From: a virus
Reading direction: 5' to 3' (one strand)
Length of the DNA stretch: 64,000 bases
IMG/VR virus record: IMGVR_UViG_3300028844_003474
Coordinates: 10,144 to 74,143 of that record
Below, piece after piece: positions 10,932 to 57,000 of the stretch; the stretch's first letter is position 1, and each line of letters begins with the position of its first letter. The notes below the pieces were generated by a model. The model was not told where the DNA came from. It saw only the letters and a program-made list of their open reading frames with translations, and made no database searches. Both the position numbers and the translations under genes were made by a program.

Positions 10932-11345
10932 ATGTGCAAAAAAGATAAAGAAGAAAAGCCAGAAGACTTTATTTGCAAAATAACATGCGGTAACGAAGGC
11001 ACTGCGTGTCTACTTACCTTCACAACTCATTTTACATTACATAGTTTCTTTCAAGCTATCGCAGCTAGCTATCCAGATGTAAATTCTGACAATCCAGTAT
11101 TGTTACGCTTCTCTGAAGACTATGATGGGTTTCGTATGACCCTTACTTGTACGGGCTATGCAGACAGTACGTTTTCTTTTAACATATCTGATTCTAACGT
11201 TGATTCTTTTTGTCAGTATGTTATTGGTGACCCTATTAACTATACTGTCAAAGATGTCTTCATTGGATGTATTCGCAATGAGATGACTAAGGTTACAGGT
11301 CGTTATGTTTCACACCTAAAAGAAGAATACCATGTCTTCCAGTAA
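10932..11345 (+). CDS. Hypothetical protein
   Basis: 137-aa ORF overlapping the start of the next gene. Confidence 0.6.
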   Translation: MCKKDKEEKPEDFICKITCGNEGTACLLTFTTHFTLHSFFQAIAASYPDVNSDNPVLLRFSEDYDGFRMTLTCTGYADSTFSFNISDSNVDSFCQYVIGDPINYTVKDVFIGCIRNEMTKVTGRYVSHLKEEYHVFQ

Positions 11346-11889
11346 TATGACAGAAAGGAACATCATCATATTTGATTTAGATGGTACTCTTGCTAATGTG
11401 AGTGTAAGACGTAGTCTTGCTGACTCTGCTAAAGCTAAAGTATTAGGTGAGGTTACTCATCCTTATGCTGATAAGGAGTTAGTGCAACAGGCTAATGAGG
11501 CTTGGTGGCATGAGTGGGAGGGAGTATCCGCCAATATCCAGTATGATAGACCTTCACCGGTTGCTGATATACTGCGTGGCTTCCATATGTTGAATAGATT
11601 TCACATTGTTATATTTTCTGGCCGTAATAATCGGCTTCATAATGTAACTTTGCGTTGGTTAGACAAGCATAGAATTCATTTTGATGATTTCTTTATTCGT
11701 CCTGCTAACGACATGCGACCTGACGAGGTGTTAAAGAATGAGATGCTTATGTCTAAACCTGAGGGGTGGCGTCGTAGAGTAAGAGTTATTTTTGACGATC
11801 GTAATAAAGTCGTCAAAGAATGGAAAAAGCTTGCATTGCTTCCTGAACACAGCTTTTCTCTAGTTCAAGTTGCTGATGGTGACTTTTAA
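11332..11889 (+). CDS. HAD-family phosphatase (T4 PNK 3'-phosphatase-like domain, stand-alone)
   Basis: Motif I 'IIIFDLDGTLAN', motif II 'FSGR', 'RP.D..LK', motif IV 'IFDDR' and C-terminal 'QVADGDF'. Confidence 0.85.
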   Translation: MSSSNMTERNIIIFDLDGTLANVSVRRSLADSAKAKVLGEVTHPYADKELVQQANEAWWHEWEGVSANIQYDRPSPVADILRGFHMLNRFHIVIFSGRNNRLHNVTLRWLDKHRIHFDDFFIRPANDMRPDEVLKNEMLMSKPEGWRRRVRVIFDDRNKVVKEWKKLALLPEHSFSLVQVADGDF

Positions 11890-12101
11890 AAAAAAATCCT
11901 GCTGCGGCAGGTATGGGACGTGGTTGAGAACTGTGACCGCAGTCGGTTTAGTACCGCCACTCCCATTAAACAGGTGATAAACACAGCCTTAAATGTGTTT
12001 GATTTTGGTTGACCATGACAAGATGGTCGTCAGTAGATTGTTAGGGGTAGGGGATCAAAACGTTGGTTCCCTACTGCTACCAACAAAGAGTACATAATTT
12101 T

Positions 12102-12186
12102 GCCACTGTGATGAAATTGGTAGACATGACAGACTTAAAATCTGTTGGACAGTTTGTCCGTACCGGTTCGAATCCGGTCAGTGGTA
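12102..12186 (+). tRNA. tRNA-Leu(TAA)
   Basis: Acceptor GCCACTG/CAGTGGT, D-loop TTGGTAGAC, anticodon arm ACAGA-CTTAAAA-TCTGT, long variable arm, T-arm GGTTCGAATCC; no encoded CCA. Confidence 0.95.
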
Positions 12187-12220
12187 CTAAAACATTTAGC
12201 ACACCTAACGTGCTTTTTAT

Positions 12221-12294
12221 ACTCCTGTAGCACAACCGGATAGTGCAACATCCTTCTAAGATGTAGGTTGTGGGTTCGAATCCCGCCAGGAGTA
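12221..12294 (+). tRNA. tRNA-Arg(TCT)
   Basis: Acceptor ACTCCTG/CAGGAGT, anticodon arm ACATC-CTTCTAA-GATGT, T-arm GGTTCGAATCC. Confidence 0.95.
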
Positions 12295-12310
12295 CTTTTA
12301 TTTTAATATT

Positions 12311-12442
12311 ATGTCAAAGATTGTATCCGTAGCTAAAGAAACTGTCTCTACTAAGAGACCAGGTATTCACAGCAAAACCAAAACCTCTAATCACAAGAGC
12401 AGTAAATGCTATCGTAAAAAGTATAGAGGTCAAGGTAAATAA
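12311..12442 (+). CDS. Small basic peptide ending in YRGQGK (43 aa)
   Basis: Manual translation MSKIVSVAKETVSTKRPGIHSKTKTSNHKSSKCYRKKYRGQGK*. I recall a C-terminal YRGQG(K/R) motif in small proteins of aquatic phages. Confidence 0.75.
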   Translation: MSKIVSVAKETVSTKRPGIHSKTKTSNHKSSKCYRKKYRGQGK

Positions 12443-12444
12443 AA

Positions 12445-12851
12445 TCCCTATACCGTCTGATTAGAGTCAGACACTTAGGGCTGGTCAGTTAAAGACCTTA
12501 AAACCCATGAGAGGCTATGGTTCCTCTCGGTTTGTCGGTGGTGTTAGCCGAAGTAATCTCCACCTAATGGTACATGAACGTACAAGTGGCCTCTGTCTCA
12601 TACTCTCTAAAGTTGGCAGAGGCTGCGGATCTCATTGGGGTCTGACTGAGCCTTATTACCCAAATCAGTTACTATCTAAAAGTCCTACGCTAAACAATCG
12701 TAGGCATTATTTATCAGTCAAGCAATAGTGTACGTGTTACCGCTTGATGTATAGACCACGTACCTGTCCCAACTTGGACAGCTTAGTCATAGTTAGAGAG
12801 AGTGTAGCTGTTATGCCAGCCTACGGGTCGCAGTGCACTCTCTTGTTTTTT
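12445..12851 (+). ncRNA. Candidate large structured ncRNA (unassigned)
   Basis: About ten consecutive stem-loops plus a putative pseudoknot, ending in a long hairpin with a U-tract, between tRNA genes; no convincing ORF. Confidence 0.55.
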
Positions 12852-12862
12852 CACAAATAAAT

Positions 12863-13303
12863 ATGGATAGAGAAACAGAAATTACCGACAAGCTATTGCA
12901 GCTTATGAGAGTACAACAGATTAACCACAACCTTGAGAATGAGTGTATTAAGCTGCGTCATGAGGTCGGAAATTTGGAAGAGCGTGACAATGGTCGTCTT
13001 ATCGAAGATTTGCGCAAAGAAAACTCTGATCTTAGAGGTGAACTCTATAAGCTCAAGGGGCGGGTGCAGCTCATGGATAATATTGTGTATCTCTACGAGG
13101 CTGAGAGGTACTTTGATTTCAAAAAGCCACGACTGTCAAAAGTTTGTCGTGAGCTTAATATGGATATGCAGGATGCAGTTGATGTTCTAGCACAAACAGG
13201 CCTCATTGAATGGTCTCGACGTGAGACATTCTGTAAACCAAACACAAAGCTGGATATGATGCAGTACTGTGTGTTGAGGTTTATAGATCACAAAAACAAG
13301 TAG
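12863..13303 (+). CDS. Coiled-coil protein with a C-terminal IF2 N-terminal-like domain
   Basis: Likely start MDRETE at 12863. The C-terminal 'PRLSKVCRELNMDMQDAVDVLAQTG...KPNTKLDMMQYCVL' resembles the Bacteroidota IF2 N-terminus (RL.KV.RELN......V.FL..KG....P.TKI....Y..L). Confidence 0.65.
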   Translation: MDRETEITDKLLQLMRVQQINHNLENECIKLRHEVGNLEERDNGRLIEDLRKENSDLRGELYKLKGRVQLMDNIVYLYEAERYFDFKKPRLSKVCRELNMDMQDAVDVLAQTGLIEWSRRETFCKPNTKLDMMQYCVLRFIDHKNK

Positions 13304-13305
13304 AC

Positions 13306-13713
13306 ATGGACATTAGCAAGACAAAGTTCATCAAGAACTTCGTGTTTAAAAAGATTAGCAAAGAAGGGTCTTACGGTGACAACCAAAGATATATCACTTA
13401 TCAAGCTTGGCTTCACTTACCAAACAACTACAGGCTTTCGATAATAACCAGCCCTGTTGGTACAGGACTTACTTCAGTTCCTAACACGTATGAAATTGGG
13501 TTCTTTTCTAATCATCATCATAATGGGATGATTAAAGCACACAAGGAAGTGTATTGTTTTAACATCAAAGGTGTAGAAAAAGAGGTTGTTGCGTATCATA
13601 CGACTGCTGAATATCTCACTCTTGAAGATCTTGAAGAATACCTTGTAGAAATCAGTGAGTGGCCTACTCGCACCAAAGAGATGGATATCGAAGAAGGTTA
13701 TATTGACTCTTAA
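13306..13713 (+). CDS. Hypothetical protein
   Basis: 135-aa ORF in the operon; contains 'F/LPNNYRLSII...YEIG'. Confidence 0.65.
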   Translation: MDISKTKFIKNFVFKKISKEGSYGDNQRYITYQAWLHLPNNYRLSIITSPVGTGLTSVPNTYEIGFFSNHHHNGMIKAHKEVYCFNIKGVEKEVVAYHTTAEYLTLEDLEEYLVEISEWPTRTKEMDIEEGYIDS

Positions 13714-13735
13714 AATAAATAACCCCTTCGTTTTA

Positions 13736-13812
13736 GCGCTTGTAGCTCAGTTGGTCAGAGCATCCGACTCATAATCGGCAGGTCGTAGGTTCAAGCCCTA
13801 CCAGGCGCACCA
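13736..13812 (+). tRNA. tRNA with CAT anticodon, most likely Ile2 (lysidine-modified) rather than Met
   Basis: Acceptor GCGCTTG/CAGGCGC with encoded ACCA; anticodon arm CCGA-CTCATAA-TCGG as in bacterial ileX-type tRNAs; lacks the three GC pairs of initiator tRNA. Confidence 0.85.
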
Positions 13813-13924
13813 TAAGGTTGAAACGTCAATCTTGCAGAGCAAACAAAACTGAGTATAGGTTTGGAATAATCTTCATGATTAGTTTTTTTGGTTTAGGAGT
13901 TTTCCAGTTCTCCTAGCTCTGCTT

Positions 13925-41548: not shown

Positions 41549-42058
41549 ATGGATTTACTCTCAGATTTAATTCAATCTATCGATTGGAAATCAGATTATA
41601 ATAAAGAATTAAAAAGAATAAGATCCGAAATATCTAAGGCCTTAGGTATTCCCCGGTCTTCTTTGGTTATCGGGCAAGACTCAGATGCTGAACGTCTTTA
41701 TTGGAAACTATGGAATTTAGCGCGGGAGGATAGAGCTGTAAAGCGAAAACTCCGCATTAAAGAAATAGCCAATACTGATTTTAAGCATCTGAGTAATGCT
41801 CGTGCCAATGATCTTGCAACTTTACAGTACGCAAAAGAAATAGAAGCTTCAAGAGAACATGCTATCTACAGTCCTGACAACAAGACTGTGTATACTGCAT
41901 CTAGTATTGAGCGTGCACAAGCGGCACACGATAAAAACATGAAGACTTACAAGAATTGTAATAAACGAATTAACAACATGTTGAATTTAGATTACAGTCA
42001 TTTATCTCAAATACAAGTTTGGTACGGAGCTGAAGACGAGCCTGATAAAAGAGATTAA
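41549..42058 (+). CDS. Hypothetical protein
   Basis: Last plus-strand ORF; its stop overlaps the stop of the convergent RNAP gene. Confidence 0.65.
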   Translation: MDLLSDLIQSIDWKSDYNKELKRIRSEISKALGIPRSSLVIGQDSDAERLYWKLWNLAREDRAVKRKLRIKEIANTDFKHLSNARANDLATLQYAKEIEASREHAIYSPDNKTVYTASSIERAQAAHDKNMKTYKNCNKRINNMLNLDYSHLSQIQVWYGAEDEPDKRD

Positions 42059-45000
42059 TTACCGTACAAGGAGTAAGCTTGGTGATTTGCAATGCTTTCT
42101 TCTAAAGCGGTGTAATGTTTCCAGCCAAACGTTCCTCTAGCTAAGTACGACGTTGCTTTAACATCTCCGTATCTAAAGCCGCCTTCAAATCGATCCCATT
42201 CCCCTGTCCATATAGCTTTTAACGCTTCTACCCCTGCAAGTGCAATAAAGCTTATTGTTCGAACGGAAGGTATTGGATCTTTACCAATACGTTTTAAAGT
42301 GTCGCCAATTTCAAAAGGAGATACAAAAGTCAACATCTCTTTCTTTAAACGCTCTACATGATAGAGTAACTTTGCTTTGTAGAATTCATCGTTAACCAGG
42401 AAGAGTTCATCGTCATCAGAGTCTTCAATTTTAATCATTGAAGCAAGCAGCCAGAGAGCTGCAGTACTCGCCATGCCAGTCATCATTTCATACATAGCAC
42501 GTTTAGCAGCATTAACAACGTGAGGTTGATCCTTGTATTGCTCCATTAAAAGACTGAATTTCATGAGTTGTTTTTCATTGTAGCTCGTCATGAAATACGT
42601 ATGCATCATTTTACCAAATCCACGGTACCAACCAATTTCAGTTTCTTCGCGTGCTTCGCTAAATTCTTCAGCTGCAAAACGTTTAAAAATGCCGTGAGGA
42701 ATCCATTTACGATATTGTAATCCTGCTTGACCTAAAGCATGTCTAGCAATTGTACCTTGATCTTCCTTGTTGTAAGCACCATGAATTCGCTGCAACCGAC
42801 TAAGCAACTTTTGTTTAAAGTTTGCCAGCTCGTCTAAAGTCAGATCTACTTCACCGTAAGGACGAATGATTTTTGCTCCTTCTGGAAGTACAACTCCTTC
42901 TGCAGCCGTGTAATTCAGAGCTTCATACAAATTAGTCTCACTACCATCGGCTAAGATTACCTTTTGTCCAAGCATGTGTGCAATCATAACTTGATTTTGC
43001 ATCAAGATTTCACCCATGTTTTGACCGTAAAACAAACGATTCATCCACACTCCCATTCTATCACGGACAAAAGAGATTTCTTTTTGATCCATAGTAACGT
43101 CGAAGAACTTGATCAGTCCGACTGTTTTGTTATCTGTAACAAACCCAGCCTTCTTTTTCCCATGTGCCATTCTGTGTAGCTCGCCATAGTTAGCGGCTAT
43201 TTTTTTACGGGCATTACGCGAATCCTTGTTTGTATAGTAGATACCTCCTGCGTTTTCAATTCTTTGTTGAACCGAACCATACAAAAAGTTGTTTAACCAA
43301 GAAGAAGGGTTAAGACCAATACCCATCATAGAGTTGTAAGTCAGTATGCGATCTACAATTTTAGAAAAAGCATCTTGATCAACCCAGCCTTGACCAAAGT
43401 ATCCTTGCAACATATGTTCCAACGATTTTTTAGCACGACTTTCACTTCCTGCAATGGTCTTCTTTTTAACTTGTTTTTCTTTACCAAATCCAATAACTGA
43501 TTTGGCATCAATCTTAGAACTAATTAAACGCATGTTGTCGATCTGATCTCGAGAAGCCAGCGAAAATGTTTCAATAGTATCTAAGGCTTTTTGTTGGGAT
43601 GCACTAACAATAAACTCTGCAATTGTTTCTTGCAGATTAGTCATAACTTTTTGCCCGTCACGAGTAAATAAGAACGAAGGTTGAGATCGCACATAGACAG
43701 GTTTATCTTCTGCATCTAATCTTTCTTGCAACTCTTCACCTGTAATTGTAATAAGCTTACGAGCTTTGTCTTCAAGCTCTGTAAATACAGTAAGCTCTCC
43801 CTCACTAAACTGAGGAATGAGGTTTCGGTCAAAAAATTTATGATCTCTGCCTAAAGCCGAACGCATTAGAGTTTTAAGATCCTGTATAGTTTGTTTTTGA
43901 ACCTCAGTAAGCAGATCATACTTGTCATTTTTGTACTTGTCAATGACTTGAAGTCCTCCGTTTGGATCCCACTGGTCGTTCCGGAATTCATCTTTTACTT
44001 TCTCTTGCTTGTACTTACTAAAAGCTTTTGGCTGACGTTGACCTGCTCGATTGACTTCACTGTATTGGATGTCCCAGTCTCGTAACGCTTCTTCACCTTT
44101 AGCTTTAGCTGCAGCCCGATCTGTTCTGTAAGTTTTTAAATCTATTTCCCAAGTGTGATACTTCTTCCAAACTTTTTTGTCTACGTTAGCAAGCATGTAT
44201 TCAATCTCTTCAAGACGAGCTTTGTCTTCTTGACTCATAACCCCGATCCGCTCGGCATTTTCTTTGATTGTAGCTTGCTCTTGCTCTAAAGCTTTATACT
44301 CTTCAGTCCGCTTTCGATGCTTGTACTTTGTATAGTACTCAGGCGTAAATTCTTGGATAGTATTTTCTGCTTCAAAAATTTTAACATCCTTAGAATTATC
44401 TCTATCCATATAGTATCTACCAGTAATAGGTGAGACAAACCGTTTGCGGTCTTCGTCTAAAATTTGCTCCCACTGATTACCTGCATCCAGGTACGTCTTG
44501 CTAATTTTATTCAGATTTGAAATCTCTTGTTGTGCTTCTAATCCATGTCTATCAAGCGTGCGTTTAACTTGAAGACTTAACAGTTTAAGCACAACTGCAG
44601 ATTGTTCTTTAGACCCCATAAAACCTTCTCTCCAGAAACCACTATCTAAAGCGTATTTCCAGAGGTTACCGTCATCAGACAAATCAAAAATGTTAGTTGC
44701 TAATTTTCTAATGATAGGATCAGCTGAAGCTTGCTTAAGTTTTTCGCTAATAGCCTCTTTTAATACATTGTCTATACGTTTTACTTGACCCGTAAGCGTA
44801 TCACCTAACTGACCTAAGCGCGCAATGTCTGCACTAGGAGCACGGCTTTTTTCTCCCGGAGCTTTTGGATTAAATCCAACTGCAGCTTGTTGCATATTTA
44901 ACAATATCTGCCTTGCGTTGTATGCCCGGTTGTAAAACTGACGATCAATTTCAGTCCATTCTCTGCCTTTTATATTATCCAGGTAGCCAGCACTTTGCTC

Positions 45001-48000
45001 TAACAGCATATTAGTGTCAGAAACAACTTCTTCAGTTAAATCTGCTATACGCCCTACAATTTGAGAACGCATGTCACTTGTAAGTCTACCCAGAGTACGG
45101 TTATTGTTCATCAACGTTTCTAACAACTTAATCTCTTCGTCTTCAGAAATACCAAGACGACGCATATGTTGAATACGTTCTGCAATAACTTCTCTTACGC
45201 CTGTTAGCATTTCCATCTCATTTAAATGAGACTTTAATCTTTGCTCAGCTTCAAAAGATAAAAGGTTATTGATGTGTACATCTTTACCTCTAAACATGTT
45301 ACGAGCCAGCTGTTCTGCAGCGTCTACTGTAACTTCTCTGCCCATAACACGGCTTAAGAATTTAGAAATAGCTCTAAAAATTCTACGGAAAACAGTTTGG
45401 ATTTTACTTACACCTAACTCTTCTGCATACACCGTGTCGCCTTTTAAGCCCATAGCTGTAGCCAGGACTTCCATATCAAGATCACGCGTTGTTTTTTCAG
45501 AGTACAATGCTTGTGTGTCTCGGTAGAGCTGCGTGCCTCTTAATTCTTTAATAGCTTGCTGAACCAGGGGGTGGTTGTAGCCAAGCATTTCGATATAGAT
45601 GTGTGCAAACTCGTGAATTAACGTGTCGCTTCTCATCTTGTCAGGATGAATTCTAATCTCGGCTTTACCCTCAACCATCTGCACTCCACCGGCACCTTCT
45701 ATACTACTGTCAAGAATAACTTTAACTTCGACACCTGCATCTCTAAAGAGTTGTGTAAGCTTGGCTTTACGTTCAGCAAACTGACGTTCAGGTTTAGAAC
45801 TTCTTCCTACTTTGCTTTCCTCTTTTATTTCAGATTTAGACATACTTTCAGTGTCTTCTACGCCGCGTTCAAACTCAGCGCGGAGTTCACTCATAGTTCT
45901 GTCTTCATGAAATCTGCTTGAAGTTAGAGGCCTAGTGATATAACCACGCTGTCCTCCAACTGTGAAATAAACACGTTGAACTTTATCTAGTGTAACCGCA
46001 ACCATGCGATTAGTTTGGATAGCTTTTAAATGAGAGTTCTTACCTATTATTTCATAGACATTAGGACTAAGAGCAGCCAACAGTTTTATCTCAAGAGGAT
46101 CTTGTATAGGATTCTCAAGCTCTCTAAAAAATACTTCTGGTAAGAACTTTGTTAAAGTGTCTCCACCAAAACGCCAGCCGCTACGCTCTGCTTCATATTC
46201 AGCCAGAGCATAGGCAAATTCTTTTACGGCGTTGTCTTCGCTTTCAGTTAGTTCTTTCCATGCTTCATAAAAATCTTGACCCATTTCAGGATCATGAATA
46301 CGTTGATGATGATTAACATCAATAAATATGTTTCCGCTACCTACACCAAAGAGATTGCTAGAAGCCATAACAGCAGTATCACGGACGTATAAGTTTTCTA
46401 GTACAAACTTTAAGCTTGAGTCATTAGCAACTTTTTTACGACCAGCGTTACTCTTGAAGTAATCAAAAAAGTCTTGAATGTTCCAAGTCTGGTACTGCCC
46501 TTTTTTACGGGCAGGTCTAAGCTGAGATACATTCTCTACTCCTTTAAGCTCTCCCATACGCAAGTAAGAGCTAGTACCTTCCTTGCGTCTAGCAGAAATA
46601 AAAGCTTTAGATGCCATATATTTCTGGTGACGATCAGATTGGTCAAACGTAATACCTTCGCTTGACTCTAAAGCTTCGCTGAAATAAGGTATACCAAGAG
46701 ACATTAAAATGTCTAATGTAGTTTGAGCAATGTCTAAGTTCTCTTTGACTACAGGCAAGTGCGTAATGTCTAACGGACTTCCTGCACCGCTTAACAAACT
46801 TTCAACACCTTCAAAAGTTTGTTGACCTGTAAGGAAAGGAATAAAAGTTGTACCTAACTCTGACAGCTTTTCTTCTTGAGTGCGCATCAACTTTTTAAGC
46901 GGCTCAAGTTTAAGGGAAAGCTCTGTGTTCCAAGCAATTACAGCTTTTAACCTCCAGTTGTCTTGGATTTTATTTTCTATTTCTTCCTCGGTCAACTCAT
47001 TGTTGATATAGTCAATAGAATCTTGATCGGTTGCAGCTTCCCAAGCTTCCTCCATCGTAAAGCCAATCATGTGTAGATCCTGCCAAATCTGAAAGTTGTT
47101 AAGTCCAATACCAAGTTGACCGTACACAGGGTCTATAGCACCGTCCATAGATGCACCAACTGTTTGTGCATTAAAACGAATACGGTCTGGCGTTAATGAT
47201 CTCCACGTTACTCTAGAAATCATCTTACCTCCCGGAGTTTCAATGTCTGCATCTAAATCAAATGCAATTTGATACCGTTGCAGATTCAACCAGAACGTAT
47301 TGTTCTTTGCAGAAATACCTTTTAGTCCAATACCTGCAATGTTGTCTTGGAACATACGCTGGTGAGACAAATAGGAGTATGGGTTTTCCGCAACATAAGT
47401 ATCAAGATTAACGCCTTCTATTTCCCTGCCTGGAAGTTTACCAGCTTGGTTTAAAGTCTCCCTAAAATTTCTAAGAATTACAAAATCTTGTTCTTGCAGT
47501 ACTTCTTCCTCAAATATTTTAGGATCAGTAAGAACTTCAAATACAAGTTGCAAATACTCATTCCATACAGATTCGTATGCAGACAAATCTTCTTTAGACT
47601 TGTGTACTTTCCAGTTGAGATACAACTTGTCGTTGTCAAAGTCAGAACCCATCTGCGCAACAAAGTCCGGCGGTACAAGCATACCGTCTTGACCTTCAGG
47701 GAGGAAGCCTATTACTTTAATTACTGCAGAAGTGTTTTTATGCTCGCCTGGAATACGATAAGCCAGCATAGTGAGAACACGATCCGGAATAGATTCGATA
47801 GGACTGTTTCGATACTCTGCCGGTAAGAAAGCTTTAGACACAATAACTTCAGCAGGAAGAACCTTACCGTCTTCTAAACGCATACCTTTTAAGCCATCTT
47901 TAATTCCCAAGTCTGGCATTTGCACCTGCATACCTCCCGGTATTTTTAAATGCTTGTAGTCTCTATGTAAAATAGCAAACAATGCGTTTACCATAGGACG

Positions 48001-51000
48001 AGCCATCATAGGATTGTTAAGAGCCCTATCCTTACTACGCAGCATTTCAACCAGAGCTTGGTTGTTTTCGTCAACGTGCTCCAACAAGAACTCGCGTAAC
48101 TTATTTCCTTTTAAAACAGGTATAACGCCATCGTACTTAATCTGACTATTACCTTCTTCGTCTAGCTCAGTTTCAAAGAAACGATTTAACAGTTCTGCAT
48201 GCTTCATGCTTAACAGCTTGCGTTCTTTACGAAGCAACTCAGTAACCATCTTAGTTCCAGAGACACCTCTAGGACCAACACGTTCTCTACCGTGCAGATT
48301 TCCTGTAACAATTTTACTAACCTGTGTCATCCAACCTGTAGTGTTGTTGACTGACATATGCTGCGGGTTGTGAACTTGGTGACGGTAGTGGTCAACTGGT
48401 AACTCCTGTACAATCGAAGCAATTCCCTCGTCTAAACGATCTTCAATAAAATTACCTTGAGCGTCAAACAGTTCAACCGGAGTATACTCTCCTGATTTTT
48501 GTGCAGACTCTACATGAGCTTGATCCAAATTTTTGGCCTCTATGTAACGCAACATACCTTCAAGCCCTGCTCTCTCAGAGAGAGGATTACCTTTACTGTC
48601 TCTAAGAAGAGCAGGCACAAGAGGTAAAACAGCTGTTTTTAAAAAGATTGTTTTACCCTTATGCTTTCCAAAGTACATAGGTTTGTACGGTGTAATTAAC
48701 GCAACTGTATCTTTGTTATTAAGCTCCTGGTTGTTCAGTGCTTTGTCAATAGCAATGCGTTTTGCATCAGTTAGCTCTCCGTGGTCTTCAAGTAAATCAC
48801 GATAAAACTGCAAGGACATATAAGTCACACCGTCTGCACGGTCTACTTGTGAAACCCAGTCTAAATCAATCTTAGGTTCTTTTATAACTACAGATCTAAA
48901 GGTTTGTCGGTCTTGGTAACGAGCAGATTGTCTTGCGTTTGCTGTACCATTAGACTGAGGGCCTTTAGCTCTCTTTTGCATCTTGACCGTATTGTATCCA
49001 AACTCTGCATGAGTACCAGAAACCCAATGCGCGTAGTCTCTATGCGAGATATAAGTAGCAGTTACTAAATCATTGAGGTGATCTGCAACATGCTCAGTAA
49101 AGGTCATACCTGCTATGGGACCTGCGTCTGTCATCTGTCCTATTTCAAGAAAACGTTGACGCACAAAAAGATCAGCAGCTTTTCTTAGTTTAGGATCAGC
49201 CATAATTAGCTTAACCTCTTTTTCAAAATGCGCTTCTATATGTTTTACTGGATCTTGTGCTTCAGCAAGACCTGGAATAGAAGCATTTTCTCCATGTGCT
49301 GCAATTTCTTCACGAGCAATACGAGTAAGCAACTCTCGTTTTTCGTTGTCTTTCATGTCGTGCCACGCACTACGAACTAACCATGTGTTTTCTGCATCAG
49401 AAGGTGTGGGTACTGCAACATAAGAAAGCTCCATAATTGCTCCATCCGATTGAGGAACTCTATGAAACAACGCATGTAAATCATAAGCCAGCTTTTGCTC
49501 TCCTCGTAAATTGGTATAAGGGGTGTTGTTTAGATACCCAAACCTTACAATGAAAGGAGAATGTGCATTACTAAGCCAAGACGTTTTAGTGCCTTCTCTA
49601 GACACCCAACTCGTGCTTCTCAAACTTGGATCTTCTTCAAGCCTTTTATTAAAGTGTGCTGGATCATTAAGTAACCGTTCGGTCTCTTCAGTAACATACG
49701 ACGGAAGCATGCGAGAGTAAACATAGGTTCCCTCACCATTTCTATACTTCAGCGCAACGGCTCCCATATCAACCTCAATAAGCTGACCTAAAATGTTAGA
49801 TCTAAGCTTAGCAACAAACTTATTGGTAGCAATACGCTTAGTCTTTAAGTCTTGTGCTTGAGTAATGGGTTCTACTTGTTTTAAAATTTCAATAAAATTT
49901 GTAGAAAATGCACGAAGCTCGCTGTTTGTCATAGTTGACAAACGGAACTCTAATGCTCCAATTTGAATTGTGTTTAGTCCAAAATCCTGAACCGCTTCTG
50001 CCAGAGCTTCACGGTCTTTAAAAGTTTGCAATGCTTTGATACGATTCAAGAATGTACCATCAGAAATATATTCTGCTGTTGTTTGAATGATACTGGTTCT
50101 GTTGTAATTAGTTAAAACGTCAAGAGGCTCTTGTGCTTTGTGAACTTTAGGAGCCTTAGACAATTCACGTTTTTGCTGACCGTACATGTCGTAATAACTA
50201 ATTACATTATTACTAACATTAAGTTCGGCTGTGTCCGCTTTCTTCATTGATACGAAGAACTGAGTCTGCAATATTTTATCTGAAGTTTTAAGCTTAGAAT
50301 ATAGAAACAATAAATTAGGATTCTTTACAGACATTTGTTCAAGCCTGTACATCATATCTTCTAAAGAAGTAGCGTCATTTAAATGATGCAATAAGTAACC
50401 AAAAACTTGATTAAAGTCCATTACTCTGGGAAGACCCGTCCGACTCATCTTGTCAAACTTGCCTTCCTCTTTGATCTTTTCCATTAACTTCTTTAACAGC
50501 TCCGCCTTTTGTTTAGAAGGCATAGAACGGCGAAGCAATTGTCTTAAATCAGATGTACCGGATGTAGGCAACATAGGAACAGATCCAATAAGGTTCCTAA
50601 CACTTGCAGGAATTTTACTTTTAGGATCAATCGTTTCCATACTCTTACCGCCGTATTGTTCAGCAGCAGTAGTACCAGTAATTGCATCTGCTTTTAAAGA
50701 GTCAAATATTCTGTTACGAATAGAAGTCTTACTTGCAAAATATTCAACCAGGTTTTCAGAGCTTTCAACCATCTCTTCAATAAGAGGATCAATAACGTCT
50801 GTATTTACGCCGTCTTCTCTCATGAAGTGCAGTGCACCGTGTATAATGCCATAGCGTCTAAACGCTAATCGAAGCATGCTTTTTGCGATGTCTGCTTTTA
50901 CTTGGTTATTTACAACCACTTCACCTGTATCAGGATCAATTTCTTGAGAAAGTCTATTTATGTTAGTTACAATCGAGATAACATCAGAAGCACCTTCGAC

Positions 51001-54000
51001 AGATCCGAACTTTTTAGTAAGATAACCAGTAGCATTATTTATGCCCTGTTCTAACGAAGGAGCAGTTTCTAATATACCCTTATACTCAAAGACAGTGTCT
51101 ATCACTTTGGCAATAGCCATGGGCAAATGCTGTTCGAATTCTTTGCGAGTAGGTGTGTCAAAGGGCGGAGCCTTCATAAACCTATTCATAAACTGCAAAG
51201 ATCTCTGACTAGGCTTCTGAGCAAACTTACCCTTATTGATGTGTTGCATCAATCGACGCGTTTGGTACTGTCTTTGGAAAATAGATTTAACTAATTCATA
51301 CAACTCAGAGAAAAACCTACGGATAACGCTCTTGTCTTTCATAGACAAGCCTTTTGTTACCATATACTCTCTAAAGGTCTCTGCAAGTTTTTCATTTAAA
51401 GCATAGTCTTTTAACTCTGCATTTGTAATTGGCTGGGTGTCAAAGTCTCTTTGCGGATTAGCATCGATAATCTCAGCACGCGCAGCTTCTAAATCTTTTT
51501 CTGTAATTGTATACTTACGTTCAGCCTCAGCCATCACCTTAGCTCTACGTGCAGGAGACAAAAACACATCAGTTACCGCGTGAAATGCCTCGTGATACTC
51601 TGTACCTACAACAGCCTCGTCACTAACAACAAGCATCCCTTGCTCCCATACTCCATACGCGCGTGTGCCGCCACGTACAATCAAACCTTTTACACGTTTA
51701 AAGCCAAGTTGAGGTAAGTTTTCTGCAAACCAAGCTTCAGCTTCTGCCATATCTTGATCAGTTGCAAGTACGTTAAGTACACCAGAGCCCATAGCTCTTT
51801 CATGAGATAAGAAAGCTCCACCAAATGGAAAGAAAGGATCAGTACCTGAAGGGTCTTCTGTGTTTGTAGGCTTAGAAGGCTTGGGAACTCCAGATGTAAT
51901 TAGCTTTTCAGCTGCAACAATTCTGAGTTTAATGTGAGTACGCTCTGTATCAGGAAAATACCTACTTCCTTCTTGTCGATTAGGAGCGCCTGGATATGTA
52001 AAAGAAATTGTTTCTCCTGATGCATTTGTAACAGGAGCAATTGGAGAGTTTACAGACTCCATTAACCTGTCTATTAAAGCTTTACCTCCCAGGTAATCAT
52101 CAACTTGACTTAGGTCTTGAATAAGAGTACCATCTTTACTTACAACAATAGAAGGGCTGAATGGAAACTCTCGCATCATTTCAAGATCTTGCAACTCACT
52201 GTCGTCAAGAGCTTGCATTCCGCTTTCTTCATGGCGAAGTCTAAAGACGTCCCTTCCGTTCTGCCTAAGCAAGAAGCTACCATCAGCTTCATTGTAAACA
52301 ATACCTGTATCAATGGTACTATTAGGTGTTGCAACTACAGTGTACTGACGAAGTTTAGATGCTTTAGTTGCCGCATCAAGTTTAGGATCTTTAAAAAGAT
52401 CTATGACTGCATTGTCAATGCCCATTTTTTCCAAGGACACTTTAGGCACACGAACATAAATAAGGTTACCTCTATCATATACAGGAGCATAGACTTGACC
52501 AATACCATAGTTAATTCCATCTTCTTCTAAAAGCAAACCATCTTGATACGGATTGTCAATTGCTTCTCCTGTTTGAAGACTGTACATACGTATATTGCCG
52601 TCAGCATCAGGTAGCATAACCGCAACCCCATGCTCATTGATAGCGTCTCTTATCTCAACAATATCTCCTAACTTAACCGTAGAATCTGCAGAAGGTCTAA
52701 GTAGATTACCTCGCGCAGACCCTTGATCGTTAGGAAGTTGCTGAAACTTAAACACATCTTCAGCCAAACCTAGTACAACAGTATCTGTATTTTGAGCAGC
52801 AAGAGCTTCTCTAAGTTGTATTAAACGATCTATATTAATCAGGGCATCAATAGCATGTGTATGCGTATTGAGATGCATCTGATCTTTAAGATTTAAGGTA
52901 ATAGACTCTTTATTAAACGCTTCTTGTTGACGTTGAGCCTGTCCCATCAAAGTATTAATCTTAGGCAAATAACCTAAGCGTACTTTTTCTCCACCTATTT
53001 TAGCAAAAATAACCCAGTTAGTCTCAGACCCTGGATCAACGTCGTATTTAAACTCAGTACTATCCTTGTTATTTGGGTTATGTTGTAGCTTTTTAAGCCC
53101 TTCAAGCCCTTGACCTTTAGTATTGACGCCTTTGTTAAGCTTTACGCTTGATACTTTTTCAGGAGATTTATATTCAGTATCGTCCTTTTCAATAGTAATC
53201 TTAACGTTAGTCTGCTCACCTTCATTTTGAGCTTCAATAACTTGTAAGATTAACCCCCAAATTCTTGCCTGTTCTTCATTTAATTCCAGGCTATCTCCTT
53301 CTTTTAAACGAGTTTCTAAAAACCCAAGACCAAAGAGATCGTCTCCAACAGTTAAAGGACCGCCTTTAGTAAGAGCCTCAAACAATTGATCCATATAGAT
53401 GGCAACTCCATCAGGAACAATCATACCCTCACGTTGTATTGTTCGGTCTAAAGATTCTGCAGCTCCTTGAATTTCTCGAGCCACTCTAATAATATGATTA
53501 CCAAAAGGCTGTAAGTTTAATTCTTCTGTAAGGCTAAACAGAGTATTATTAATAGTAAAAACATTAGAAAGATTTTTACTAGACGCTTCATCTAAGACAA
53601 CTCTTTTCTGTTCGCTTTGAGCGTTTACCTGAGAAATAATTTTTGCAAATGTTTCTCCTTTTTCTAAACCTTCAAGAATAGCACCTGCTATTTCATTAAG
53701 GTTTTCCATAGCTTCATCAGCTTGAATTAAATCTTTTTTAATAGCGTCATAAAGATTTACTTCTTCGCCTTGCGCTGTAATTACTACAAAGTTGGGAACA
53801 AAGTCTTCAATAGCTTTATTAACAATAGAATCTGAGATGTCTTGCATGTTACTAGACATAGACAACCTCGAGTTTCCTAAAATATCTTTAATAGCAGCAG
53901 CCTTTTTATTACGCTGACTTTTTAAGTTTTCTAATTCAGAAGGATCCAATTCAGAAGATGCAAATCGAATAGCAGTTTCAATATCACTTAACTCTTGAAG

Positions 54001-57000
54001 TAATGGTTTTAACTGACCTCGTACTGCGCTTTCACTACGTGCAGGCTTTAGCTTTCTACCTTCAACTGTATCTAGCGGGTCCAGTGGAACAATAGTTTGA
54101 AACTGAATATCACTAACTTCTTGAACTAATGTGTTTTCGGCGCTAGGGTACTTAAGGCGGATAGCAATAATGTTAAGATCCTTGGCAACAAATCCATAAC
54201 TGTTTGCCATAAGAATCCGATACAGACTTAACTGACGTTGATACCGTTCTCTCTTAGAGAGCTCTCCAATATTGTAAGGAGTATCAAATTTACTTTCACC
54301 CTTGTTAGCTCCACTTTGATGCACGTCTTGAAGACTATGCTTCATAGTTTTCATATCGTAAATCCGAACATTGCCTTGCTTATCTATTGTAATCAAGTCA
54401 GCACTTCCAGCAATCCCTAACTCCTGATTAACTAAGAGTAAATCTTCAGTGTATGCAGTTTCTCCGGTTTCTTGAAAATCTTGTCTAAGTTGTTGAAGCT
54501 GAGCAAGAAACGCATCAAAACGAGCTTCTGCCTCAGGTACATCCATATTCATAAGACGCTGCATTGCAACTTCTTTAACAAGGGTGTTAGCAAAGAAGTC
54601 TCTTACAATTTGGTCTACAACATTACCTAAGATTAAAGCAGATTGAAGTTGAGGCGCAGATGTATCAAGCTCTTCGCTACTTACAACTTTACTTACACGA
54701 GTATAATATTTATCAGTACGAGTGTCGTAATAAGCATTAGGAACCTTACCAGGGTTTTTGGGATGACCTGGTTCTAATACAAACTCAGTAAGCGCAGCCA
54801 TATTAGCAAGCATAGCTTCTGCTTCTGCAACTGCTTGCGGATTCTCCGTTTTACCTGGAGGTGTAGGAGGTTCTTGTTTTTTTCCTTTGTTCTTTTTAAG
54901 ATCTTCTAACCTTTGTTTTGCAGCTTTTAAGATGGTGTCTTTACCCATCATTTTAGCACGCTTAATAATGTCTTTTAAAACCTTTTTATCTGAAGTCTTT
55001 TTAATGGTTGCAAGTGCAAGTTTTTCTGAGTTTTCTTCTCGTGTAATACGATCTTGTTCCGCAGCTTCTTCAATCTCTTCAATTCCTTCGTCAGATTGCA
55101 TATAAGCCAGTCTTTGCTTAATTGCATTAAGACCAAGCTCTTCCATCATAGCAGTTTTTTCCTCGTCTGTAATCTCTTTTTTCTCGTCTTTAACCTCATT
55201 TAAATCAACGTCTTCAGCAAGAAGATCTGCTTCAATTTGACCTTCAATTGCTTCATATTGAGCAATACGATCTTCAAGCATTGCTCTACGAGTATCATCG
55301 TTTTTAAGCCGTGGATCTTCGAGAAGACTTTGTATGACTTCGCGTTCAGTGCGAAGCTGCTGAAGCATAGTCTTTCTAGCATAATTTTTTCTATTACCGG
55401 AAGGAAGCTCAATACCTTGATTCTTAAGCTCTTCCATAATCGCCTCTTGCTGGCGAATGTCTTTTACAGTATTTGCATATCTAGCAATGTAATAACCAAT
55501 TGCATCTTCACTAAGACCTTTCTTTCTACCAACTTCTATAGCTTCTTTTATGGTGGCTTCTTCGGCGCGAAGCGATTCAACCATCGCATCTTGCTCAGCC
55601 ATTAACTCTTCTTTAGTGCCCAAGCCCATACGAGAAAGCTCTCCCATAAACTCTTCGCTCTGTATTTGCTCAACCAATTGATCTATGCGACCTGCAACAG
55701 TAGCGCGTTGTCCCAAGAAAGAGAGCATGTCTTGCTTAACTTTATCAGCCTCTTTATACTTGCCTTCTTTAGTAAGAGTTGAATGTTGCTTTATAAATGT
55801 TTGTATAATGTTATGAGTCTCTTTGTAATGCTCAAGCTCAGTATTATCCTTTTTACTTATTAAAGAACCAAGCCCATTAAAAACTCCGCCACCAAACATA
55901 CCAAAAAACGCACTCTCCCAGAAGCGATCGTCTTGAACATAATTATTAAGACGATCTGAATGTGATCCAATAAAGTTATTTTGAAGTCTATGTGCAAGTG
56001 CAACACCTTCCTCTGCACCATAAAAGTTGACCATCTCTTCAACTCCTTCAGACCCAGATACAAGTCCAAACTTTCCAACTTTCCCTAACTTTTGCGCATA
56101 AGTTTTTGCCCACGATGGCATAACCATGCCTTTTGTAGCGTTACCTCCTTCTCTAATAGCCCTACGAGTAGTGGATGCTCTTCTCCCTGTTCTGCGTGCA
56201 AGCTGAGCTGCACGGCCCAATCGCATGATAGATCCAACCTGTATTAAATCAAAGAAGAGGTTTGTGCTATTTATAGCGTAAGAGCGCATAGCAGCTCTAT
56301 CTCCTACGTATTCTGCTAGTTCGTACTTATTTCTAGGAGCTCTTCCATTCTTAGCAACAAAGTTTTTGTAAGCCATAGTTCCTTCCATTTCAGACACAGT
56401 CATAGAACTGTTTAGGAATTCACTTTCTGCTCGTAAAAAAACGTCTGCTCCTTCACGAGTGTTTTCAGCATGACGCATAAATGCTGCCATATTAAAACCT
56501 TCAGCCAAACGTCCTGCCGCTTTAGCTTGAATCTGAGAAGCTTTAAAAGCTTTTCTATAACCTTTACCTAATTTAGCAGCTCTAGCTAAATAACTTGCTG
56601 CTTTCATTCCACTATAACCAGGAATAAGAAGACTAAACGTACTTAAAATATTGGGTATGTTGGTTCCCCACCAACCTGGATCAGCCCATTGAAATGACTT
56701 TTGTGGATTGTATTGAAATATAGGAGCATACGTTTGCATGTCTTCACGCGTAGCGCCTCCCATACGAGTAAGCATGTTAGTACCTCCTGGGTCACCTATA
56801 AGTCCTAGAGAACCAAAGCCTTCTAACGCACCTCCAAAAACTTCACCAATAAGACCTTGATATAAAGTGCCATTAAGTATTTTTTCACCTGGTGTTTGAT
56901 TTTTAGCAGCTTGCGTTTCTCGTAAGTTTGACATGGCAAAATCAGGAGAATAACCAACGTAGCGTTGAACTCCACCTTCAGAAATACCTAACTGAAGACC

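Follow-up and report, generated by a model that had tools for sequence, protein, structure and literature searches.

To our knowledge, the structured RNAs that phages encode beside their tRNA genes, such as T4 RNA C and RNA D, GOLLD and ROOL, have had no function assigned to them for decades and, as far as we know, the RNA biology of crAss-like phages of marine Bacteroidota is almost unexplored. Positions 12445-12851 of the DNA analysed here (the whole stretch of 64,000 nucleotides, hereafter the window) had been proposed, in an initial annotation made from the sequence alone, to encode a pseudoknotted non-coding RNA of about 400 nt inside a tRNA cluster. The proposal raises several questions: whether this stretch is a non-coding RNA at all, whether it is one RNA or more, whether it belongs to a known class, and what such an RNA may do for the phage.

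The phage and the setting of the RNA cluster

The window is contained in a 74-kb IMG/VR virus record that is 87% complete according to CheckV. Its TerL and portal proteins match crAss-type PHROG families, and TerL is about 40% identical to that of Flavobacterium psychrophilum phages and more distantly related to those of Bacteroides crAss-like phages and of Cellulophaga phage phi14:2; the source is thus an uncultured marine crAss-like (Crassvirales-type) phage, and its host probably belongs to the Flavobacteriia. A single ORF of 5286 aa (42055-57915, minus strand) may include the crAss-type virion RNA polymerase.

The features of the locus, including the two modules (A and B) into which the stretch is divided below, are the following:

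11332-11889, plus strand: gene of a PNKP-type (polynucleotide kinase-phosphatase) HAD phosphatase, from PHROG/Pfam scans
11895-12100: about 210 nt free of ORFs, between the PNKP-type phosphatase gene and tRNA-Leu
12102-12187, plus strand: tRNA-Leu(UAA), ARAGORN; Rfam tRNA score 57.8 bits
12221-12295, plus strand: tRNA-Arg(UCU), ARAGORN; Rfam tRNA score 67 bits
12311-12442, plus strand: ORF of a basic 43-aa peptide, from the ORF list; its stop codon lies 2 nt 5' of module A
12445-12626, plus strand: module A, 80% identical to L006:1693-1871
12627-12636, plus strand: linker of 10 nt that joins A to B; L006 has about 170 nt in its place (alignment)
12637-12843, plus strand: module B, 234.5 bits with covariance model R1, a family of 12 variants; the U-tract continues to 12851
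12844-12851, plus strand: U-tract TGTTTTTT, read from the sequence after helix H5
after 12851, plus strand: two small ORFs, then tRNA-Met(CAU) at 13736

The position next to tRNAs was borne out, as ARAGORN located tRNA-Leu and tRNA-Arg 150-340 nt upstream of the stretch and tRNA-Met about 900 nt downstream.

Several other elements of the neighbourhood were observed. The segment 11895-11970 is conserved, non-coding and matched in the related contigs L019 and L106 (there downstream of module B), and it folds as a long stem with a branch resembling a tRNA T-arm; a second conserved non-coding piece, 11968-12100, matches L091 and L050/L090. The 43-aa ORF is Lys/Ser-rich, ends in KKYRGQGK and has no PHROG or Pfam family. 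Its homologue in L008 has the same length, ends in KKYRGQGR and is diverged at the DNA level, L091 carries a near-identical copy directly 5' of module B, and a contig from an RNA library covers the ORF; it is likely a real small protein. RNA-repair-type genes are found just upstream of the RNA islands in the window, L046, L006 and L050, and in the latter three they encode P-loop proteins of 230-241 aa with the motif ILRGLPGxGKT; no RNA ligase was found among the about 30 window ORFs scanned. The 146-aa protein encoded downstream of module B (12863-13303) has 15 homologues, all from uncultured marine sequences. It had been described as IF2N-like, a description that receives no Pfam support at E <= 0.01, and none of the homologues has a Pfam domain. 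Its gene lies upstream of module B in L097 and L089 and occurs in L103 without module B.

Folding energy and searches against known families

The minimum free energy of the stretch was compared with that of dinucleotide shuffles, with the following z-scores:

whole region, plus strand: -2.74
module A: -3.01
module B: -1.99
whole region, reverse complement: -3.63

The stretch therefore folds better than its shuffled controls, modestly; the reverse complement folds equally well, so that energy proves little and does not distinguish the strands, and it is covariation that decides.

A search of 11800-13900 against Rfam, at gathering thresholds and at E <= 10, returned only the three tRNAs and chance matches, with no match to GOLLD, ROOL, tmRNA, RNase P RNA or group I/II introns; with the same two cut-offs, the modules themselves found no counterpart in Rfam, whether taken from the window or from four relatives. 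The initial annotation had offered GOLLD or ROOL as one option, which is thereby not supported; its other option, a new class, is the one that agrees with the search, which places the RNA in a class outside Rfam. Nothing was found by blastn and megablast of the region against public phage records, a consensus promoter/terminator scan with a loop limit of 8 nt listed nothing on the plus strand in 12445-12851, and the motif ATAGTTAGRG is not enriched in the window.

Relatives and the shuffling of modules

Relatives were obtained by an nhmmer search of a TerL-based collection of related viral contigs, and further ones by conserved-motif pattern scans of viral and metagenome contigs followed by covariance model R1. 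The resulting family is small, with 12 distinct variants of module B, all in marine crAss-like phage contigs and scoring between 91 and 234.5 bits with R1 (234.5 bits in the window, 91-229 bits in the 11 others). Positions 12637-12838 are 92.6% identical to L046, though the TerL proteins of the two phages are only 64% identical; weaker nhmmer matches to module B are present in L006 and L050. Where it is found, the module has one copy per genome, including two genomes (G002 and G010) that are 100% complete according to CheckV.

Nine of the 12 variants of module B have no module A. In L091, a close relative of the window phage, the stop codon of the peptide ORF is followed after 8 nt by module B, with no module A between them; the three sequences in which module A was seen (the window, L095 and L006) all have it upstream of B, with some 170 extra nt separating the two in L006. 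Module B itself is divisible, since L105 and L106 have only its 3' domain (H3-H5) and lack the 5' domain, and the terminal hairpin of L050 differs. The neighbouring ORFs vary between the genomes carrying module B, and the modules are without exception on the strand of the genes, in a position between tRNAs or tRNA-like elements and short ORFs. These distributions demonstrate that the modules have been shuffled independently among related but divergent marine crAss-like phages. The original proposal of a pseudoknotted non-coding RNA of about 400 nt stands as regards the RNA, its structure and its pseudoknot, and fails as regards a single 400-nt unit.

The search for relatives outside this group gave null results: a pattern scan for the loop motif in 185,579 bacterial and archaeal genomes had 0 matches, and a covariance model search of the cultured Flavobacterium phage Fpv20 and Cellulophaga phage phi14:2 gave a best E of 0.06 over 19 nt. 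No related locus was reached via two neighbouring proteins, and an alignment of the 146-aa family used as an anchor led to one locus, L103, which has neither module.

In the complete 85-kb relative L006 the RNA genes form an ORF-free island of about 1.3 kb (L006:250-1870, minus strand, about 1.27 kb), in which module A, the 170-nt insert, module B, a module of about 170 nt common to L006 and L050 (closed by AAGGCAG/CTGCCTT) and more are found. The same island contains, at L006:717-793 (minus strand), a sub-threshold match to the HDV-like drz-agam-1 family (24.8 bits, E 0.03, gathering score 37).

Structure of module B

The elements of module B, all on the plus strand, are the following:

12643-12649 with 12665-12671: helix H1, TGACTGA/TCAGTTA, with a 15-nt loop
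12684-12689 with 12699-12704: helix H2
12718-12723 with 12742-12747: helix H3
12764-12769 with 12776-12781: helix H4
12797-12843: helix H5, with a bulged G, a CUG/CAG step and a small UACG-tetraloop hairpin
12730-12763: H-type pseudoknot PKb, H3 loop GTACGTG (12730-12736) with CACGTAC (12757-12763)
12638-12641 with 12658-12661: possible 5' pseudoknot, GGGU with ACCC in the H1 loop

In the model-derived alignment of the variants, standard pairs occupy 90.7% of the cells, against 31-42% when the partners are slid by 1-3 columns; both sides of the pair change in 24 of its 52 pairs, and none of 500 shuffles reached any of the pairing measures. The pairing of module B therefore lies above both the slid and the shuffled controls. 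Across the curated helix arms of the 12 variants, 455 cells are Watson-Crick, 36 G-U, none A-C and 6 other, with compensatory changes at 29 of 45 positions, a count that leans toward pairing because the arms were picked by hand. The ratio of 36 G-U to 0 A-C identifies the plus strand as the RNA strand.

Most of the stems originally listed for the stretch are at the places given for them, and RNAfold recovers nearly all of them; two pairings fail the comparison. In module B, the stems CCTACG/CGTAGG, TCAAGC/GCTTGA and CTGTCC/GGACAG, together with the terminal hairpin at 12797-12843 and the TGTTTTTT that follows it, are supported by the relatives. The stem GGATCTC/GGGGTCT is contradicted: it spans the junction of A and B, and in the relatives GGGG stays while the sequence upstream of it changes completely. 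The other failure, in module A, is described below.

H1 was absent from that list, as was the possible GGG/CCC 5' pseudoknot. This helix covaries in L104, where it reads UGACAUA/UAUGUCG, and its 15-nt loop, GCCUURUUAYCCAAW, is nearly invariant, as are several junction nucleotides of the module; a search of the window for a site complementary to the loop gave only the loop itself. The YCC of the loop can pair with the 5' GGG, variation there being a GC/GU alternation only, and the two may thus form a second, 5' pseudoknot.

The alignment of module B was fitted to the nested helices and not to the pseudoknot, and for this reason PKb was tested separately, by asking, for each variant, how many consecutive Watson-Crick pairs the H3 loop can form at most with the segment that precedes H4, so that the pseudoknot strands were not hand-picked. 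The runs are 6-8 bp long, and each was matched by 6-47 of 2000 shuffles. The H-type pseudoknot had been predicted from the window, and its pairing is kept in five different sequence versions: besides that of the window, GCAATCG/CGATTGC in L006, GCAAGTG/CACTTGC in L050, ATACGTG/CACGTAT in L095 and L097, and ACACGTG/CACGTGT in L104. The comparison of variants demonstrates, for module B, a fold of five helices and one H-type pseudoknot.

Structure of module A

Only two effective sequence variants of module A are known. The hairpins of the window copy lie at 12446-12480 (nested), 12483-12497, 12537-12564, 12570-12583 and 12586-12626, and a tentative pseudoknot would join CCAT (12505-12508) to ATGG (12517-12520), interleaved with GAGAGG (12509-12514) and CCTCTC (12523-12528). 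An nhmmer match to L006 covers 12452-12627 at 80% identity. Among the 41 differences between the two copies are at least 6 compensatory pair changes: two pairs change in CCCUA/UAGGG, and further compensatory pairs are present in GUCUGA/UCAGAC, GGUC/GACC, GAGAGG/CCUCUC, GGUGG/CCACC and the tentative CCAU/AUGG. L095 differs from the window at one position, 12596 U to C, which turns a U-G pair into C-G; the same U/C is also a variant in three sequencing runs.

The relatives thus favour the earlier assignments of CCCTA/TAGGG (12446-12450 with 12476-12480) around GTCTGA/TCAGAC, of GGTC/GACC, GAGAGG/CCTCTC and GGTGG/CCACC, and of the 12-bp stem 12586-12597/12615-12626. The extension AAACC/GGTTT is broken in L006. 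GTAC/GTAC is present in the sequence and identical in both variants, so that the comparison neither supports nor rejects it. Tentatively, module A may carry the pseudoknot CCAU/AUGG.

3' end of module B, tRNA-like elements and expression

H5 is followed in the window by UGUUUUUU, and the hairpin with its U-tract was unlisted by the consensus scan under the 8-nt loop limit; the U-tract suggests that H5 doubles as an intrinsic-terminator-like 3' end in the window phage. The U-tract is found only in the window, L091 and L092 and is absent from most variants, and in L091 and L092 a tRNA or tRNA-like element comes right after it. Such an element, either a tRNA or a tRNA-like one without anticodon, begins 4-10 nt after module B in 6 of the 12 variants: L091 has a tRNA-Met starting 6 nt after H5, and in L046/L105, L092, L104 and L050 the distance from H5 to the start of a tRNA-like element is 4-10 nt. 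No tRNA-like element follows module B in the window. The anticodon-less elements are located as follows:

L046, 5265-5346, minus strand
L105, 1403-1485, minus strand
L092, 751-830, plus strand
L104, 3350-3436, minus strand
L050, 2843-2899, minus strand

They have a 7-bp acceptor stem, a conserved CACAG/CTGTG core and a T-arm of the GGTTCGATTCC type, and one long closed hairpin replaces the D and anticodon arms. The element of L104 ends in an encoded ACCA and is called 'tRNA-??? (gggg)' by ARAGORN. All of them are self-contained and placed after module B, with no joined ends of the tmRNA type.

At the other end, the conservation of module B starts exactly at the first G of GGGG, whatever the sequence upstream, which makes a dedicated promoter unlikely and processing from a longer transcript likely. 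Moreover, a putative RNase P substrate directly after module B in half of the variants suggests that tRNA-processing enzymes define the 3' end. Contigs from three RNA libraries of two studies cover 12174-12346, 12285-12432, 12439-12710, 12491-12635 and 12665-12822; they are a weak hint of expression only, because they give no ends or strand and DNA carry-over is possible. The flanking ORFs 11391-12027 and 12847-13665 are covered by a DNA run and by no RNA-library contig, an absence that is not evidence.

Proposed role and alternative explanations

The explanation that we favour, with a probability of about one half, is that stable small RNAs produced from the tRNA operon act in trans, through the invariant loop and junctions, on a host or phage partner. 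The modules would be transcribed with the neighbouring tRNAs as one precursor, which would then be cut to release them as stable small RNAs. In the window phage the 3' end of module B would be set by the H5 hairpin and the U-tract; in the relatives RNase P would produce it by cutting at the tRNA or tRNA-like element 4-10 nt past H5, a route suggested by the relatives only. The released RNA would act in trans, with the loop GCCUURUUAYCCAAW and the conserved junction nucleotides facing the host or phage partner, most likely a protein of tRNA/RNA metabolism or of an RNA-targeting defence.

The modules could instead be cis-acting parts of the tRNA or early transcript, serving in processing, as a block to exonucleases or in termination or antitermination, with no function as free RNA. 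The resemblance of H5 and its U-tract to an intrinsic terminator in the window would fit such a role, and so would the constant setting of the modules (same strand as the genes, flanked by tRNAs or tRNA-like elements and by short ORFs), the absence of promoter-like conservation upstream, where conservation starts exactly at GGGG, and the module A loop UACUCUCU, a possible competitor of the 3' arm of H5, to which it is similar. However, the neighbouring genes vary by genome, which leaves no fixed regulated target, the U-tract is missing in most variants, and the near invariance of 15 loop nucleotides and several junctions goes beyond what stability or a terminator hairpin needs. Module A is absent from 9 of the 12 variants, so that a switch between A and H5 is not the general function; the alternative pairing between this loop and the terminator, which had been put forward earlier, likewise has no support as a general mechanism, since module A is missing from most of the genomes that have module B. 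We consider a role in cis a possibility to be kept in mind, on the unlikely side. Self-cleavage or another catalytic activity of module B, or of its 5' domain, defining the 5' end of the RNA at the invariant GGGG, appears highly unlikely to us. The start of conservation at G1 after unrelated sequence is as in HDV-like and hatchet ribozymes, the fold is pseudoknotted, and the weak drz-agam-1 match falls elsewhere in the L006 RNA island; yet, even at E <= 10, none of the module B variants has a match to a ribozyme family of Rfam, the P3/L3 and P4 elements and the J4/2 cytosine of HDV-like ribozymes cannot be fitted into the GGGG/H1 pseudoknot, and L105 lacks GGGG while keeping the 3' domain.

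A divergent member of a known large RNA (tmRNA, RNase P RNA, group I intron, GOLLD or ROOL) would share with the stretch a size of about 400 nt, several pseudoknots and a place beside tRNAs; an AAAGUCC motif, which we take to recall conserved region I of RNase P, and the tRNA-like elements that follow module B in the relatives may be added to this side. Against it stand the Rfam result in the window and four relatives, the lack of any tmRNA call by ARAGORN and of a conserved tag frame, and the separate occurrence of the modules, which a single catalytic core would not tolerate, and these leave it only a very slight chance. A still slighter one is given to small proteins, encoded by the 73-aa ORF 12507-12728 or the 38-aa ORF 12744-12860. 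Open frames do exist in the window, but the 73-aa ORF has no third-position bias (the differences between the window and L006 are 4/8/6 over codon positions 1/2/3), and in L006 its ATG is gone and its frame is broken by an earlier stop; it spans the junction of A and B, which is absent or interrupted in other genomes, and has no PHROG or Pfam match, and the lengths of the indels in hairpin loops are not divisible by three. A conserved coding signal in this ORF, which would have spoken against a non-coding RNA, was thus not found. By these comparisons both modules are demonstrated to be non-coding and conserved in their predicted base pairing.

Some candidates were rejected individually. For tmRNA, ARAGORN gave none and no Rfam tmRNA model matched; there are no tRNA-like ends, as had been noted from the start, and no tag frame, all three frames of the module A stretch having several stops in the window and L006, and one long frame ending at different places in the two. 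RNase P RNA (bacterial type A/B models, P4 core) had no match at E <= 10. A group I intron was discarded with no Rfam match and with only about 6 nt between the 5' strand of H3 and the pseudoknot strand, too few to accommodate P4-P6. HDV-like, hatchet, pistol and twister ribozymes had no Rfam match in the window or in module B of the relatives, and an HDV-like fold for the 5' pseudoknot was excluded with no P3/P4 and no position for the catalytic cytosine.

Comparison with known systems and implications

The plus strand of 12445-12851 is a non-coding, densely structured region composed of two separately inherited modules. They represent an RNA family that is new relative to Rfam, and in kind they are structured phage RNAs beside tRNAs.

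T4 RNA C and RNA D are small stable RNAs encoded in the tRNA gene cluster of T4, and they are the nearest analogues by position. The host of T4 is E. coli; the RNAs described here belong to marine crAss-like phages, and they are larger, pseudoknotted and shuffled as modules. According to PMC9697503, rnaC and rnaD still have no known function. In GOLLD the 3' region is conserved and the 5' region variable, and tRNAs are in some cases linked to the RNA (bioRxiv 10.1101/2024.12.08.627333). Module B resembles GOLLD in that the 3' domain H3-H5 is constant and the 5' parts vary. With GOLLD and ROOL the family shares a phage or prophage origin, a frequent location near tRNA islands, multiple pseudoknots and an unknown function; the stretch is in fact phage-encoded, as judged by the crAss-like TerL and portal, and lies beside tRNAs. 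Unlike those RNAs, it matches no Rfam model, and its size of about 200 nt for each module and about 400 nt for both compares with roughly 580 to more than 800 nt for GOLLD and ROOL.

In MALAT1-mascRNA and MEN-beta, 5' cleavage of a tRNA-like element by RNase P makes the 3' end of the upstream RNA. The layout in L046, L092, L104, L105 and L050, and in L091 with a true tRNA, appears analogous. The likeness is one of architecture alone, as the present system is bacterial/viral and has no triple-helix element, and the window copy uses a U-tract instead of a tRNA-like element. A catalogue of 10,006 candidate structured RNAs has been derived from IMG/VR (PMC10690425), and it likewise reports covariation-supported RNA motifs in uncultivated phage contigs, including tRNA-like ones.

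The shuffling of modules between distant phages indicates that each of them probably carries a selectable function. A broader view, distinctly unlikely and offered as speculation, is that A, B, further modules and the tRNA-like elements make up a recombining RNA-gene toolkit of these phages, in which the double-pseudoknot RNA, matured by the tRNA processing of the host, would be a decoy or inhibitor of a tRNA- or RNA-directed host defence or of a translation factor, or else an RNA-only assembly like those of ROOL and GOLLD. For the biology of phage RNAs beside tRNA genes, the present work contributes a family that is small and tractable (about 210 nt) and has a covariation-supported pseudoknot, an invariant loop and a modular architecture; its recurrent occurrence next to tRNAs or anticodon-less tRNA-like elements is suggestive of maturation by RNase P.
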